Assembly: GCA_947627975.1 (NCBI GenBank)
Contig: CANQYB010000003.1
Span: 3,588-67,587 of the forward strand
Length of the DNA: 64,000 nt
From: an uncultured Bacilli bacterium
GTDB taxonomy: Bacteria; Bacillota_I; Bacilli_A; RF39; UBA660
Direction: 5' to 3'
Shown here piece after piece: positions 31,512 to 35,860 of the stretch. The first letter of the stretch is position 1, and the number at the start of each line of letters is the position of its first letter. A model generated the notes under the pieces. The model was not told the DNA's origin, did not search any database, and saw nothing but the letters and a program-made list of their open reading frames with translations. Both the position numbers and the translations under genes were made by a program.

Positions 31512-32122
31512 TGAAAAAAATTTTATCTATTAAAAATATTTCTAAAACTTATCATACAAATCAAGGAGAAATTAAAGCAATTGATAATATATCTTTAGAT
31601 ATAAATGAAGGAGAATTTATTGCAATAGTGGGAAGTTCTGGGTGTGGCAAAAGCACCCTTTTATCCATACTTGCAGATTTAGAAAAAGCATCATCTGGGA
31701 CTTACAAATTTTACAAAGACAATTTTAAAATAGGTTATATGTTACAAGTGGATGCTTTATTTCCATGGCTTACTATTTTAGAAAATTCAATATTAGGTTT
31801 AAAAATAAATCATAATGATTCCAAAAAAAATATCGATTATGTAAAAAAGATGTTAATTACATATGGGCTTAAAGATTTTATGAATAAATATCCAAGTGAG
31901 CTATCGGGTGGTATGCGTCAAAGAGTTGCTTTAATAAGAACACTAGCAATTAAACCAGATATTTTACTATTAGATGAAGCTTTTTCAGCATTAGATTATC
32001 AAACAAGATTAGCAGTTTCTGATGATGTGTATAAAATAATAAAAAAAGAAAATAAAACTACAATTATGGTAACTCATGACCTAGCTGAAGCTATATATAA
32101 AATAAACATAAATAATTATTGA
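31511..32122 (+). pseudogene. ABC transporter ATP-binding protein, N-terminal fragment (disrupted by an insertion after ...VTHDLAEAI)
   Basis: Walker A (GSSGCGKST), ABC signature (LSGGMRQR), Walker B (ILLLDEA) and H-loop (HD) are present. The sequence then diverges into eight out-of-family residues before a stop. The missing C-terminus is found at 35686-35860. Confidence 0.8.
32086..32096. repeat. left copy of the 11-bp direct repeat TGAAGCTATAT flanking the insertion
   Basis: An identical 11-mer recurs at 35686-35696. Joining the two flanks restores an uninterrupted ATPase reading frame (HDLAEAISLADKIIVL). Confidence 0.8.
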
Positions 32123-32151
32123 AATAAATTGGTACCTTATTATTTAAAGAC

Positions 32152-32284
32152 CATATTTTATAATAGAAAGGAGAACTATTATGAATTCTTATCAAAGAGC
32201 TTTAAATTATATAAAAAATAATCAAGGCAAATGTCCAACATGTTGTTGTAGTGTTGGTGGTATTGGACCAACTGGACCTACTGG
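32152..32284. repeat. IR-left: 133-bp perfect inverted repeat (ribosome-binding site plus the first 35 codons of the collagen-like gene)
   Basis: Identical to the reverse complement of 34363-34495. Confidence 0.85.
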
Positions 32285-33329
32285 ACCAATCGGAATTGAA
32301 GGATTACCAGGTCCAATGGGAATACCAGGTGATAATGGTCCAACAGGACCTACAGGTCCAACTGGGCCTCAAGGTGAAATAGGAATTACCCCAACTTTTA
32401 CTATTGGAAATGTTACTATTTCTGATGATGATAATTACGCTAGTGTAACTGATACAGGTAATAATTTGGAACATATTTTAAATTTTATTTTTCCAAAAGG
32501 TAGTAATGGGACTGCAGGTCCGACTGGGCCAACAGGTCCTGCTGGAACTAGTGTTACAATTTTAGGATCTTATGATACAGTTGAAAATTTAGAAGCCTCT
32601 CATCCTACTGGAAATTCTGGACAAAGCTATTTAGTTGGTGATAATTTATATGTTTGGTCTAATGAAAATGATAATTGGATTGATGTTGGGCAAATTAGAG
32701 GACCACAAGGAGTACAAGGAGAAATAGGGCCAACTGGAAATACTGGACCACAAGGTATACAAGGACCACAAGGTATTGAAGGAGATATTGGTCCAACTGG
32801 ACCAACTGGGGCAACTGGGCCTACTGGACCTGCTGGCATACAAGAAATAGGTGCTGCTTATTTTGTAACATTTAACAACAATTCAGATGATGGTTATATT
32901 ATTAATAGTAATGAAAGAATTCCTATTACAAGAAAAGAAGTTGACAATACTGATATGTGTATTTTAAATAGCGATAATACCATTAAATTTAATAAAGCTG
33001 GTGTTTATAAAGTAGATTTTATTTTAACAGCTTTTACAAAAACAAATTCTGAATTTGATAAAACTAATGATATAATAGCAATTGGTTTTAAAAAGACTAA
33101 TGAAAATATAGTATATGCTGGAGGAAGTTCTTGGTATGTGTCAGAAACAAATACTAAAATTATAGGTCAAGGTTTATTTATCATTTCAAATCCTGATACT
33201 GAAATGATGGAATTAGTAAATATGTCAAAAACTACTTTAAATTTAAATACACCTCTTTTAGATTATACAACATCTGATTCTTATTTTGTAAATCCCGTTT
33301 TAACAATAATAATTCAATATCTTGGATAA
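32181..33329 (+). CDS. collagen triple-helix repeat protein, BclA-like (interrupted G-X-Y runs plus a C-terminal globular domain)
   Basis: [27 protein letters not shown] leader, GPTGPTGP repeats, a non-collagen insert (TSVTILGSY...[11 protein letters not shown]), a second G-X-Y run and a C-terminal domain of about 150 aa. Confidence 0.8.
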
Positions 33330-33356
33330 AAAAATTAGTCTTTTTTAGACTAATTT
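33330..33356. terminator. bidirectional terminator between the convergent collagen-like genes
   Basis: AAAAATTAGTCT-TTTTT-AGACTAATTTTT palindrome. Confidence 0.6.
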
Positions 33357-34466
33357 TTATATATTTTCATCAATTTTCTTAAGACTTAAAGAAGCAGTAA
33401 CTCCTGGTCCCAAGTTTATAATTACATTATTTTCTGTAGCTGATATAACCATATCTAATACATCATCAGCCATTAAAGAAATAATTGTACTTCCATTAAA
33501 ACTAACATTTTCGTTAGGCATAATTTGTTTTACTATAACAGCAGATGGAATCATAACATTATTTTCTCTTATCATTAAACTAATTATGGCAGCCTTGCTA
33601 CCTGTAAAATTAATTGAATAATTTAATTCATATATTCCATCTTGTTCTAATTTAATAGAATTTATAGGAGAATCAATAATATTGATATTATCCATAACTT
33701 CAGTAAGTGGCACTTGTACCCAAGTTCCTGCAGCCATTGTATCTAAAGTTGCAGTTATATTGTTATATTTTCCACCATAGGCACTTAATAATGCTGTTCC
33801 AATTGGGCCTGTTGGTCCTGTTGGCCCTTCTATTCCTTGAATTCCTTGGGGTCCAGGTTCTCCAGGAATACCTTGTAACCCTTGTATTCCTTGTATTCCT
33901 TGGGGTCCTGGAGGTCCTTCTATCCCTTGAGGTCCTGTTGGGCCAATATCTCCTTGAGGTCCTTTTATAGTTCCAACGTTTATCCACTCATTTTTATTAT
34001 CAGACCACACGTATAAATCATCACCAACTAAATAAGCATCTCCTATGTTCCCTGTTAAATGTTCATCTAATAATTCATTTAAATTACTATAAGAACCCAT
34101 AATAGTTACGCTAGTTCCAGCAGGTCCTGTTGGGCCTATTTCTCCTTGTTCTCCTTGAGGACCCGTTTCACCTATTGGTCCTGGTACTCCTTGTAATCCC
34201 TGAATTCCTTGGGGACCTGTTGGCCCAATTTCTCCTTGTTCTCCCTGAATTCCTTGAGGACCCGTTTCTCCCATAGGTCCTGGTACTCCCTGAATTCCTT
34301 GAATACCTTGAGGTCCAGTTGGCCCTGTTTCACCTGTTGGTCCACCACTTGGGCCTGTTGGGCCAGTAGGTCCAGTTGGTCCAATACCACCAACACTACA
34401 ACAACATGTTGGACATTTGCCTTGATTATTTTTTATATAATTTAAAGCTCTTTGATAAGAATTCAT
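33357..34466 (-). CDS. collagen triple-helix repeat protein, BclA-like (paralog)
   Basis: Same 35-aa N-terminal leader, G-X-Y repeats (GPQGIQG), the same interrupting domain (TSVTIMGSY...[11 protein letters not shown]) and a distinct C-terminal domain. Confidence 0.8.
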
Positions 34467-34495
34467 AATAGTTCTCCTTTCTATTATAAAATATG
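34363..34495. repeat. IR-right: 133-bp perfect inverted repeat
   Basis: Reverse complement of 32152-32284. Confidence 0.85.
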
Positions 34496-34513
34496 TCTAA
34501 TAATATTTTTAGT

Positions 34514-35647
34514 TTATATATTAAACAAAATTTTTTCATTTTTAATAATTATTTGAATATTTAAATTTTCTAAAAATTTATCTTTTAAATTATTTTCTAA
34601 TTTATTCCAATTTATATAAATTCCTCGTTTTTGTAAATAAACAAATATTTCTTTATCTAGTTTTAAATGACTAATAGATTTTTGCGTACATTTTTTTTTA
34701 ATTCTGTTTCGACAATAATAACTTACAAATGTCTTATTATTATTCAAAGTTCTTTTAGAAGTAAAACTTTCTCCACATAATCCACACTTTAAATATTTTA
34801 CAAAATACGCATCACTATTTGCTTTTTTAGTTTTAAATATTAAAAGATCTTTTTTTATTTTTTTATTAACTATTTCAAATTTTTTTTTATCAACAATACT
34901 TTGGTGTTTTCCTAAAAATTCTTTATAATTTTTAGAATTAATATTATGTCTTACTTTTCCAATATAATTAGGGTTAGTTAAAACTAATTTAACTGTTTTT
35001 GCTGTCCATAATTTATTTTTTTTAGTAGGAATTTTTCTTAAATTTAAATATTTTGCTATTTTCAAGAAATTATAATCTTGCAAATAAAGATCGAATATTA
35101 AATTTACAATTTTAACTTCATCTTTTTTTATATATAAAATTTTATCACCTTTTTTCTTATAATAACCAAATGAAGGAGTATTTGAACATATTGAATAACC
35201 ATCTTTTACTTTTTTTGCAATACCTAATTTAACTCTTTCAATTAAATTTTCTCGTTCAAATTCGGCAAATATGCCTATTATTTTTATAAACATTCTCCCA
35301 GTTGCACTTGATGTATCAATAGACTCTGTTAAAGAATTAAATGAACATTTATAATTATTAAAAAGTTCAATTAAATAAATTAAATCTTTTGTACTTCTAG
35401 TTAATCTATCTATTTTAAATACTAAGACATTTTTAATTAAATTATTCTTTATATCATTAATCATTTTGTTTATAGCGGGACGATGAATAATATCTTTCCC
35501 ACTTATGCCCTTATCTTCATAAATAGATATAACTTGCCAATCTTTTATTTGTGCCCAATTTAATAACTTTTCCTTTTGAGCTTTTAAACTAAAACCATGT
35601 TGTGCTTGTTCATCTGTTGATACTCTTATATAAATACCTGTTTTCAT
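34514..35647 (-). CDS. serine recombinase (resolvase/integrase type with a C-terminal recombinase domain and zinc ribbon)
   Basis: N-terminal catalytic domain (YIRVSTDEQ...DRLTRS), a recombinase domain and a CxxC...CxxxxxxxC zinc ribbon; 377 aa. Confidence 0.85.
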
Positions 35648-35665
35648 ACTAAAATATATTTAATT

Positions 35666-35860
35666 ATGCTTAATTTATACCTAAGTGAAGCTATATCTTT
35701 AGCAGATAAAATTATTGTTTTGTCACAAAGACCAAGTAAAATTAAAAAAATATATGAAATAAAACTTTCAAGTAAAAATAACCCAATAGATAAAAGAAAA
35801 GCAAAAGAATTTTCAACCTATTATGATTCAATATGGAAGGACTTAGATATAAATGTCTGA
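35666..35860 (+). pseudogene. ABC transporter ATP-binding protein, C-terminal fragment
   Basis: From 35686 the frame reads SEAISLADKIIVLSQRPSKIKKIYEI, the typical NitT/TauT ATPase C-terminus. It ends in an ATGTCTGA overlap with the permease start. Confidence 0.8.
35686..35696. repeat. right copy of the 11-bp direct repeat TGAAGCTATAT
   Basis: See the left copy. Confidence 0.8.

Follow-up and report, generated by a model that had tools for sequence, protein, structure and literature searches.

A candidate minimal integrative element: a 3.6-kb serine-recombinase segment with collagen-like cargo that splits an ABC-transporter ATPase gene in an uncultured gut bacterium

The 64-kb window analysed here (the whole stretch of 64,000 nucleotides from contig CANQYB010000003.1, to which all coordinates refer) derives from an uncultured low-GC gut bacterium and contains a NitT/TauT-type ABC-transporter operon whose ATPase gene is interrupted by a 3.6-kb segment. 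This segment, hereafter the element, encodes a serine recombinase and two collagen-like proteins (CLP1 and CLP2), and is bounded by the attachment (att) sites attL and attR. The host is walled, as Mur ligase, penicillin-binding protein and VanY genes were present in the window. The operon and the element comprise the following features:

30519..31511, + strand: substrate-binding protein (SBP) of the interrupted operon, 330 aa, NMT1/SsuA-like (Pfam NMT1, E=5e-21; NCBIfam SsuA_fam below cutoff)
31511..32122, + strand: ATPase N-terminal fragment, 203 aa, of which 194 residues, up to and including the H-loop (...VTHDLAEA), come from the host and the last 9, before a stop, from the element
32066..32109, + strand: attL, with host arm ATGGTAACTCATGACCTAGC, core TGAA (32086-32089) and element arm GCTATATATAAAATAAACAT
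32152..32289, + strand: left arm of a 138-nt inverted repeat (99%), with the promoter-like CATATTTTAT motif, a ribosome-binding site (RBS) and CLP1 codons 1-36
32181..33329, + strand: CLP1, collagen-like protein, 382 aa (Pfam Collagen, PF01391), with Cys-rich N-terminus (CPTCCC), GXY repeats, tail-fibre-like middle domain and TNF/C1q-type head
33330..33356, no strand: AT-rich hairpin between the convergent CLP1 and CLP2 genes, a probable bidirectional terminator (fold of 33322-33366: -12 kcal/mol, z = -5.1, 0/200 shuffles as stable)
33357..34466, - strand: CLP2, collagen-like protein, 369 aa (Pfam Collagen, E=7e-22; BclA_C, E=1.6e-9), its first 36 residues the same as in CLP1
34358..34495, - strand: right arm of the inverted repeat, 138 nt, 99%, covering the CLP2 5' region (repeat search)
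34514..35647, - strand: serine recombinase, 377 aa (Pfam Resolvase, Recombinase and Zn_ribbon_recom), its coiled-coil arm reduced to a stub
35666..35709, + strand: attR, with element arm ATGCTTAATTTATACCTAAG, core TGAA (35686-35689) and host arm GCTATATCTTTAGCAGATAA, 38 nt upstream of the recombinase start codon
35693..35860, + strand: ATPase C-terminal fragment, 55 residues, ISLADKIIVL... (ISLADKIIVLSQRP...), from open reading frame (ORF) reading and tblastn, overlapping the permease start
35853..36638, + strand: permease of the interrupted operon, 261 aa (Pfam BPD_transp_1)

The ATPase N-fragment possessed Walker A, the signature motif, Walker B and the H-loop (...IMVTHDLAEA) before nine foreign codons, and its residues 1-194 were matched at 100% by tblastn. 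The gene is split at 32086-32096 and 35686-35696, where two copies of the 11-mer TGAAGCTATAT lie 3,600 bp apart, and this 11-mer occurred exactly twice in the window. Removing the 3,600 bp in silico rejoined the ATPase into a 249-aa protein with a complete ABC_tran match (Pfam). An earlier note on this DNA, made from the letters alone, had described an operon split inside the ATPase gene at the H-loop and a C-terminus resuming downstream; ORF reading bore out this layout, as well as the overlap of the C-terminal part with the permease gene (ORF 35666-35860, permease start at 35853). The exact repair by deletion that it had proposed held for the reading frame and the ABC_tran match, the product being 249 aa long and not 250. 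The rejoined ATPase shared 93% identity over 100% of its length with intact 249-aa proteins (P0001), the cluster including at least 10 further intact 249-aa ATPases among the matches listed. In the sister-lineage contigs encoding P0001 (L001-L003), the SBP-ATPase-permease operon was uninterrupted and followed by the gene for the helix-turn-helix (HTH)-membrane protein of the window, and the empty site (L001) read ...ATGGTAACTCATGATCTTGCTGAAGCAATATCTCTTGCC... Insertion into an ATPase gene is thereby borne out by an intact gene in an uninterrupted operon, an empty site of the kind the earlier note had proposed to look for, found in a sister lineage and not at the same allele.

Within the window's own lineage, all four contigs carried the element in one orientation, L096 being identical to the window. 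The ratio of non-synonymous to synonymous substitution rates (dN/dS) was 0.15 for the ATPase N-fragment (window vs L007, a relative described below) and 0.06 for the ATPase (window vs L001); both ATPase halves, the SBP and the permease were free of frameshifts and stops, with dN/dS of 0.05-0.20. As in gene-intervening elements, a coding sequence is split and precise removal repairs it, here and in four relatives, and all five reconstructed ATPases were intact ORFs of 247-252 aa.

The att anatomy was established by comparing junctions, using the L001 empty site together with L007, L099, L103, L104 and L015. TGAA alone was shared by attL and attR throughout the six aligned elements (the shared stretch being TGAAG in L007 and TGAA in L103), so that the 11-mer of the window is partly a coincidental identity of element arm and host arm; the shared 11-mer reported earlier thus stands as a sequence present in exactly two copies, and is longer than the functional core. 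The reconstructed attP is ATGCTTAATTTATACCTAAG-TGAA-GCTATATATAAAATAAACAT (~44 bp), with 20-nt arms matching as an imperfect inverted repeat at 14/20 positions, and the reconstructed junctions read ...ATGGTAACTCATGACCTAGCTGAAGCTATATCTTTAGCAGATAAAATT for attB and ...TTAATTTATACCTAAGTGAAGCTATATATAAAATAAACATAAAT for attP. As TGAA alone is shared by attL and attR in all elements, the crossover is predicted to lie within the Glu codon of HDLAE, with GA as the crossover dinucleotide. By these comparisons, the att-site anatomy appears typical of large serine recombinases. The attP arms were conserved between the window and L007 and resembled the attB arms.

The right arm of the element (35666-35686) also supplied an in-frame ATG before the C-fragment (MLNLYLSEAIS vs MVTHDLAEAIS), making the 64-aa ORF 35666-35860 that gene callers annotate; because the attP arms resemble the attB arms, this ATG is probably a by-product of att-site similarity. 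A working two-piece split ATPase was considered and rejected, as the ATG was present in the window and L007, absent in L099 and L103, and preceded by no RBS.

The recombinase possessed Resolvase, Recombinase and Zn_ribbon_recom domains (PF00239, E=1e-40; PF07508, E=6.6e-21; PF13408, E=8e-8), with a TP901-1 catalytic domain match at E=5e-33. In an alignment of 27 recombinases (22 short and 5 long relatives of 487-492 aa), R8, S10 (the catalytic residue), R81, R84 and the zinc-ribbon cysteines C288, C291, C312 and C320 were invariant in all sequences. The short recombinases showed a single gap of ~97 columns relative to the 487-492-aa proteins, between the zinc ribbon and the final C-terminal strands. 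This position is the site of the coiled-coil arm, a feature of large serine recombinases that the 377-aa protein lacks, and its AlphaFold2 (AF2) model (predicted local distance difference test, pLDDT, 84) showed only the helices 327-340 and 352-362 after the zinc ribbon, while matching the solved SPbeta, Bxb1, LI and phiC31 integrases (9dxd, 9iu2, 4kis, 9rah). The short recombinases were monophyletic in a neighbour-joining tree of the shared region, and dN/dS was 0.21 between the window and L007. The conserved gap, monophyly, invariant catalytic and zinc residues and dN/dS together indicate a functional, old lineage rather than a decayed gene.

These results agree with the zinc-ribbon recombinase near the right end that the earlier note had read from the letters, place it as a descendant of large serine recombinases within a single short clade, and speak against the degenerate pseudogene that the note had named as a refuting outcome. 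The best NCBIfam match was CcrB, at 168 bits against a cutoff of 900. In the one-genome-per-species collection no close relative was found (best match 52%), and a phage hit covering 99% of the query (H15) was rejected as a short-recombinase candidate, its annotated gene encoding 473 aa. In the searchable literature, nothing relevant was found on natural coiled-coil-less serine integrases, which is weak evidence of novelty. The noncoding gaps of the element (84, 27, 47 and 38 nt, less than 200 nt in total, between three ORFs only) leave no room for a directionality-factor gene.

The closest relative, P0122 (384 aa), was 70% identical to the window recombinase and was encoded on 14 contigs (L007-L014 among them, including the metagenome-assembled genome, MAG, GCA_947627995.1). 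Its element sat between the same two ATPase fragments, in an operon whose ATPase was 78% identical to that of the window, and its cargo in L007 comprised a CLP1 orthologue, another collagen-like protein sharing its N-terminus and a GT2-TPR glycosyltransferase, encoded in tandem in the direction of the operon. The recombinase-plus-collagen module whose recurrence had been raised earlier is thus found again, in L007-L014, at the same codon. More distant short recombinases (51-57% identical, 356-374 aa) were found by look-up or scanning, each at the same ATPase site:

L099-L102: PAP2 and LtaS-like sulfatase-domain protein as cargo, 4.0 kb
L103: 184-aa protein and NAGPA as cargo, 3.1 kb
L104: PAP2 only as cargo, 1.9 kb
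L186/L189: sortase-like, 169-aa and NAGPA-like proteins as cargo, 3.7 kb
L148: short recombinase at the same site, on a contig too short for cargo or size

One complete short relative (L128, 389 aa) occupied another site. Of ~93 complete relatives with a coiled coil that the genome and metagenome scans returned, only four used the ATPase site (L015, L017, L023 and L116); the L015 element measured ~9.1 kb and, by reading of its ORF translations, appears to possess coupling-protein-like and replication/relaxase-like genes. Taken together, the contexts delineate an element family of low-GC gut Bacilli MAGs: its members measure 1.9-4.6 kb, occupy one ATPase site and bring in one to three genes of cell-envelope or surface type. 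Dedication of a whole family to one ABC ATPase codon with small variable envelope cargo was not found in the searchable literature, and this family of mini-elements is previously undescribed. The minimal integrative islet proposed in the earlier note is therefore borne out by the empty site, the att anatomy and related elements with other cargo at the identical codon.

Horizontal movement of the short-recombinase elements is indicated by L099 and L104, whose recombinases (74% identical) are more alike than their permeases (55%) and ATPase N-fragments (54%). In addition, intact ATPases closer to the window than that of L007 were found (P0001 at 93%, P0002 and P0003 at 80-83%), so that either repeated insertion or repeated precise loss is needed.

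Other serine-recombinase elements were also found in the same operon. In L103 (9654-11958) and L104 (7703-13104), the SBP gene was cut near residue 195 by elements encoding 567-aa and 446-aa recombinases, respectively, the cargo in L104 including an ADP-ribosyl toxin-like gene, and in L100 (3183-5104) a truncated permease lay beside a 422-aa recombinase; with such elements splitting its SBP gene or adjoining a truncated permease, the ABC operon is an insertion hotspot. The similarity between positions 30400-38200 of the window and 4700-9100 of L001 was mosaic, with unrelated outer flanks on both sides: the ABC operon shared ~81-92% nucleotide identity (synonymous divergence, dS, 0.45-0.65), and the adjoining HTH-membrane protein gene (36662-38038) 95-98% (dS 0.10). 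Some part of the block has been exchanged recently.

With regard to the cargo, both collagen-like proteins had been called BclA-like, which held by sequence for CLP2 (38.1 bits for PF18573, BclA_C, against a cutoff of 38) and by predicted fold for CLP1. The 168 C-terminal residues of CLP1 were modelled (AF2, pLDDT 90.8) as a TNF/C1q jelly roll whose best PDB matches were the F-BclA tip-fibrillum head 9h38 and Bacillus anthracis BclA 1wck (TMt ~0.8). As far as the modelled fold shows, CLP1 and CLP2 would form trimers, each chain with a Cys-rich N-terminus, a collagen stalk and a BclA/TNF-like head. Read from their sequences, they possessed neither a signal peptide nor an LPXTG or other cell-wall anchor, and no NCBIfam match to the exosporium leader was found, their N-terminus being different and Cys-rich; a double-glycine secretion leader was rejected, as the GG was missing from both L007 orthologues. 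The CLP1 family comprised only 83 proteins, all unnamed, in a set of 5.8 billion, with a shared 23-residue N-terminal sequence specific to the family, and some members were encoded at chromosomal sites apart from any short recombinase. A domain of ~57 residues (SVTILGSY...GDNLYVWS...W.DVG.I.GPQG; 32550-32720 and 33950-34120, also L111 ~560-740) preceded the collagen run of CLP1 and CLP2, was 44-54% identical to annotated tail fibres of unrelated phages (Bifidobacterium and Pseudomonas jumbo phages, Methanobacteriales viruses) and was covered by no Pfam family.

The 138-nt inverted repeat, which the earlier note lacked, spanned the upstream motif, RBS and first 36 codons of both CLP1 and CLP2. 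The L095 element differed from that of the window solely by a 45-nt in-frame deletion in the CLP2 collagen repeats (33879-33923; 369 vs 354 aa), a variation of stalk length within the population.

A chromosomal pair of related genes, likewise absent from the earlier note, was located 5.4 kb outside the element:

41081..43091, + strand: CLP3 (41081-41938, 285 aa) and a GT2-TPR glycosyltransferase (ORF 42066-43091)

CLP3 possessed the same N-terminus as the CLPs of the element and a BclA_C head, and the pair was orthologous to that inside the L007 element (CLP3 vs L007 CLP286, 82% aa identity, dS 0.66). Since this dS is lower than that of the host genes (~1.2), an exchange of the collagen/glycosyltransferase module between chromosome and element is suggested. 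The collagen pair described earlier as sole cargo therefore remains such with respect to the three ORFs of the element, and its family is not exclusive to it, the chromosomal CLP3 having the same 5' region and promoter-like motif. An upstream motif, CATATTTTAT...AGAAAGGAG (also TCATATTTTAT..AGAAAGGAG), was common to all five collagen-like genes of the window and L007 genomes, with a variant before the glycosyltransferase; its form TCATATTTTAT(A/T)(A/T)TAGAAAGGAG was located at 32152-32161, 34486-34495 (- strand) and 41053-41062 in the window, and upstream of 9163 and 10434 in L007. This conserved motif may be the promoter of a dedicated regulon. Four of the five genes had AC-N16-CATATTTTA upstream, a pattern fitting AC-N16/17-CATAnnnTA, the B. 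subtilis sigma-K consensus; the pattern is short and AT-rich, with 11 loose matches in the window. Because the cargo shares the promoter-like motif of the chromosomal CLP3 and glycosyltransferase, CLP1 and CLP2 probably add to or diversify the surface-fibre set of the host, spore-appendage-like or other.

The glycosyltransferase family matched the phage family phrog_13126 (8e-98), and the gene adjoined a collagen-like gene in one unverified phage record, both gene types also being present in a 129-kb actinophage genome; this co-occurrence suggests that the GT2-TPR enzyme glycosylates the collagen-like fibres. The conserved N-terminal part of the glycosyltransferase (..KKEGINIKKICVYAISKNEE; window 41990-42066) lay upstream of the first ATG, GTG or TTG and after the RBS AGAAAGAAGG, and the same region of L007 (~8200-8313) was likewise without a nearby canonical start, so that translation may begin from a non-canonical codon, for example ATT. 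In L107 (10837-14273), the gene for a 527-aa serine recombinase immediately preceded those for a 115-aa BclA_C fragment and a GT2-TPR glycosyltransferase; here a recombinase element may have interrupted a collagen-like gene. Elsewhere in the window, two adjacent large ORFs (57285-61441, + strand; 480 and 897 aa) were without Pfam match at E<=1e-4.

We consider it reasonably probable that the 3.6-kb segment is a minimal site-specific integrative element, with a recombinase probably excising it without a helper. From the anatomy and from knowledge of the family, the serine recombinase would have joined a ~44-bp imperfect-palindrome attP with a matching site in the ATPase gene, splitting the gene, with the crossover inside the TGAA that spans the Glu codon of the H-loop motif HDLAE. 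In large serine integrases, directionality (attP x attB) is imposed by the coiled-coil arm, itself under the control of directionality factors. When LI integrase is deprived of its coiled coil, intramolecular PxB and LxR recombination proceed with similar activity, the block on excision is lost, intermolecular integration is poor and site selectivity is lost (PMC5499577, PMC10754689). By analogy, with the arm as directionality device lost, the short recombinase alone would be expected to carry out attL x attR excision as well as integration, favouring intramolecular excision, and excision would restore the 249-aa ATPase exactly. Helper-free excision by the natural enzyme is a reasonable expectation on this analogy, and fits an element without room for a helper gene.

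A bolder and rather doubtful extension is that the short recombinases constitute a natural, long-lived coiled-coil-less clade needing no directionality factor, and that each mini-element could work as a gene switch complete in itself. Integration would turn the ABC transporter off and place the surface or envelope cargo behind the operon, and excision would bring the transporter back, whether reversibly during growth or irreversibly in a terminal cell, for instance a spore mother cell. If true, regulated-gene-integrity modules would gain a new, minimal class, and serine integrases a new functional type.

Several observations weigh against the proposal of a minimal element excising without a helper. 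The activity of the natural coiled-coil-less enzyme is inferred from mutants of distant enzymes, and the coiled coil of phiC31 integrase is essential for recombination (PMC10754689). Element and host divergence between the window and L007 were similar (dS 0.98 for the recombinase, 1.18-1.26 for host genes), which is equally compatible with long vertical residence. All assemblies of the window lineage carried the element in the same orientation, and none of the five reconstructed ATPases was found by exact look-up among 15 billion proteins; the P0001 cluster contained sister-lineage alleles and the truncated fragment of the window only, with no same-allele empty site. The attP-arm pattern TTAATTTATACMTAAGTGAAG had no match in the JGI metagenome or IMG/VR collections, the relatives coming mainly from ENA/Logan assemblies that these do not cover. 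No recombinase promoter was identified by the sigma-70 scan, which is uninformative in such AT-rich DNA (30 sites vs 30.3 expected); this promoter is predicted to overlap attR. Finally, the element carries no transfer genes of its own to account for movement between cells.

Developmental excision in an endospore-forming host, as with skin in sigK or SPbeta in spsM, is an unlikely alternative. The element would be cut out only in the terminally differentiated mother cell, restoring the transporter, and its cargo would form spore-surface or appendage-tip fibres of the same cell. The architecture is that of the known cases, with an end-adjoining serine recombinase, a split coding gene and exact repair (PMC5595907); both cargo proteins are of the BclA/F-BclA fold, without signal peptide or LPXTG and with a Cys-rich, CC-containing N-terminus like L-BclA and the S-ENA tip-fibrillum candidates (PMC11362473, PMC12357932). 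Fixation of the element in all assemblies, with the ATPase halves under purifying selection, is as expected if excision is confined to non-reproducing cells. The AC-N16 pattern upstream of four of the five collagen-like genes, fitting the sigma-K consensus, points the same way, but its 11 loose matches in the window reduce its value. Moreover, no sporulation-specific Pfam family turned up in 46 scanned ORFs of the window or in the Pfam annotations precomputed for the retrieved genomic contexts, the element targets a nutrient-type ABC transporter instead of a sporulation gene, and other family members carry non-spore cargo (PAP2, LtaS-like, NAGPA, sortase-like).

A frozen insertion is decidedly unlikely: an old integration that has ceased to excise, with a dead ABC transporter in this lineage and a recombinase either retained for some different role or slowly decaying. 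It would account for the lack of a same-allele empty site or circular junction in the collections and protein look-up, for an identical element in at least three assemblies and for the truncated SBP gene of the operon in L008. A dead transporter does not sit well, however, with ATPase halves, SBP and permease free of frameshifts and stops at dN/dS 0.05-0.20, nor with the exact repairability of five out of five split ATPases; the recombinase, at dN/dS 0.21 and with catalytic and zinc residues invariant across a diversified clade, shows no sign of decay, and its discordance with host genes between L099 and L104 speaks against a frozen state.

The 138-nt repeat brings in an invertible switch comparable to the Gin/Hin tail-fibre switches, in which the recombinase would flip the 2.07-kb segment between the repeats and swap the collagen gene bodies behind their upstream regions. 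The 99% inverted repeat flanks two gene bodies beside a serine recombinase, the cargo resembles phage tail fibres, and short-read unitigs break at the repeat (L005, L006, L097), although such breaks are expected at any repeat longer than the assembly k-mer. We regard this switch as very improbable. Nothing resembling an att core or arms was present within the repeat, and inversion would change little because CLP1 and CLP2 each hold a promoter-like motif, RBS and start inside it. The closest relative (L007) has its genes in tandem without the repeat, and other family members lack paired genes; one orientation was found in all three independent full assemblies, and look-ups of CLP1 and CLP2 gave one arrangement. 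The enzyme also has the architecture of a large serine recombinase, not of a small invertase with a C-terminal HTH (Hin/Gin/Cin type).

A prophage remnant, i.e. an integrase and tail-fibre genes surviving the deletion of a temperate phage, is equally improbable, since the matches of the collagen-like proteins to tail-fibre PHROGs (with a 57-residue middle domain 44-54% identical to phage tail fibres), of the glycosyltransferase family to phrog_13126 at 8e-98 (co-occurring with collagen-like genes in phage records) and of the recombinase to the phage integrase family phrog_95 are countered by at least eight independent short-recombinase elements all measuring 1.9-4.6 kb with mostly non-phage envelope cargo, which makes small size a family trait and not a one-off decay, by an L015 element (~9.1 kb) that looks mobilisable without phage structural genes recognisable in its ORF translations, and by the same collagen-like family at chromosomal loci with the same promoter-like motif.

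The natural arm-less clade, with its defined attP, attB, attL and attR variants, offers a ready test of the purpose of the coiled-coil arm, and the short recombinases may supply compact helper-free tools for genome engineering. The family also illustrates that an integrative element can be reduced to a recombinase and one to three genes, yet hold to a single, highly conserved target in divergent hosts, namely the codons for the H-loop of an ABC ATPase, and it points to rapidly exchanged envelope and surface-fibre genes in uncultured gut Bacilli (BclA-type, glycosyltransferase, LtaS-like, PAP2, NAGPA-like and sortase-like).

Among known systems, the cargo compares with the BclA family (BclA, L-BclA and F-BclA) in its GXY stalk, its C-terminal TNF/C1q jelly-roll head and its lack of a signal peptide, as well as in the glycosyltransferase adjoining a collagen-like gene at the paralogous locus of the window. 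In Bacillus endospore appendages, the tip fibrillae are BclA-type proteins with Cys-rich N-termini and no exosporium leader, and the Cys-rich N-terminus with CC motif is shared with L-BclA and the S-ENA tip candidate (PMC11362473, PMC12357932). The window proteins differ in having no exosporium leader, a family-specific N-terminus and an extra tail-fibre-like middle domain. With SCCmec, the likeness lies in CcrA, CcrB and CcrC as best NCBIfam matches of the recombinase, far below cutoff and thus at family level only; Ccr enzymes need no separate directionality factor to integrate and excise their non-phage cassette (PMC5595907). They differ in their size (440-560 aa), in targeting the 3' end of orfX/rlmH without inactivating it, and in a resistance cargo of tens of kb.

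The large serine integrases (LI/A118, TP901-1, Bxb1, phiC31 and SPbeta SprA) share homologous catalytic, recombinase and zinc-ribbon domains with the window protein and, as far as the reconstructed attP suggests, att sites of ~40-50 bp whose dyad symmetry is centred on a non-palindromic dinucleotide; the window protein differs in its length of 377 aa and in the absence of the ~97-residue coiled-coil arm, a loss that is natural, ancient and conserved in a diversified clade. The closest likeness in architecture is with the gene-intervening elements (skin/SpoIVCA in sigK, SPbeta/SprA in spsM, gin/GirC in gerE, and vfbin; termed regulated-gene-integrity elements by Mageeney et al., 2020), which share the insertion within a gene and the end-adjoining serine recombinase (PMC5595907, PMC7192596), as well as a short common core flanked by imperfect inverted repeats and a precise deletion that repairs the frame. 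The element of the window is far smaller (3 genes in 3.6 kb vs the 31 genes of gin), possesses neither a directionality-factor gene, or space for one, nor a coiled-coil arm on its recombinase, and targets a NitT/TauT-type ABC ATPase rather than a sporulation, competence or virulence gene. The element class that the earlier note did not recognise appears new in its coiled-coil-less clade and codon dedication, neither of which was found in the searchable literature, and familiar in its plan: on the evidence of its sequence, the serine-recombinase gene-intervening, or regulated-gene-integrity, elements are the group to which it is best assigned, as a minimal member (PMC5595907, PMC7192596).

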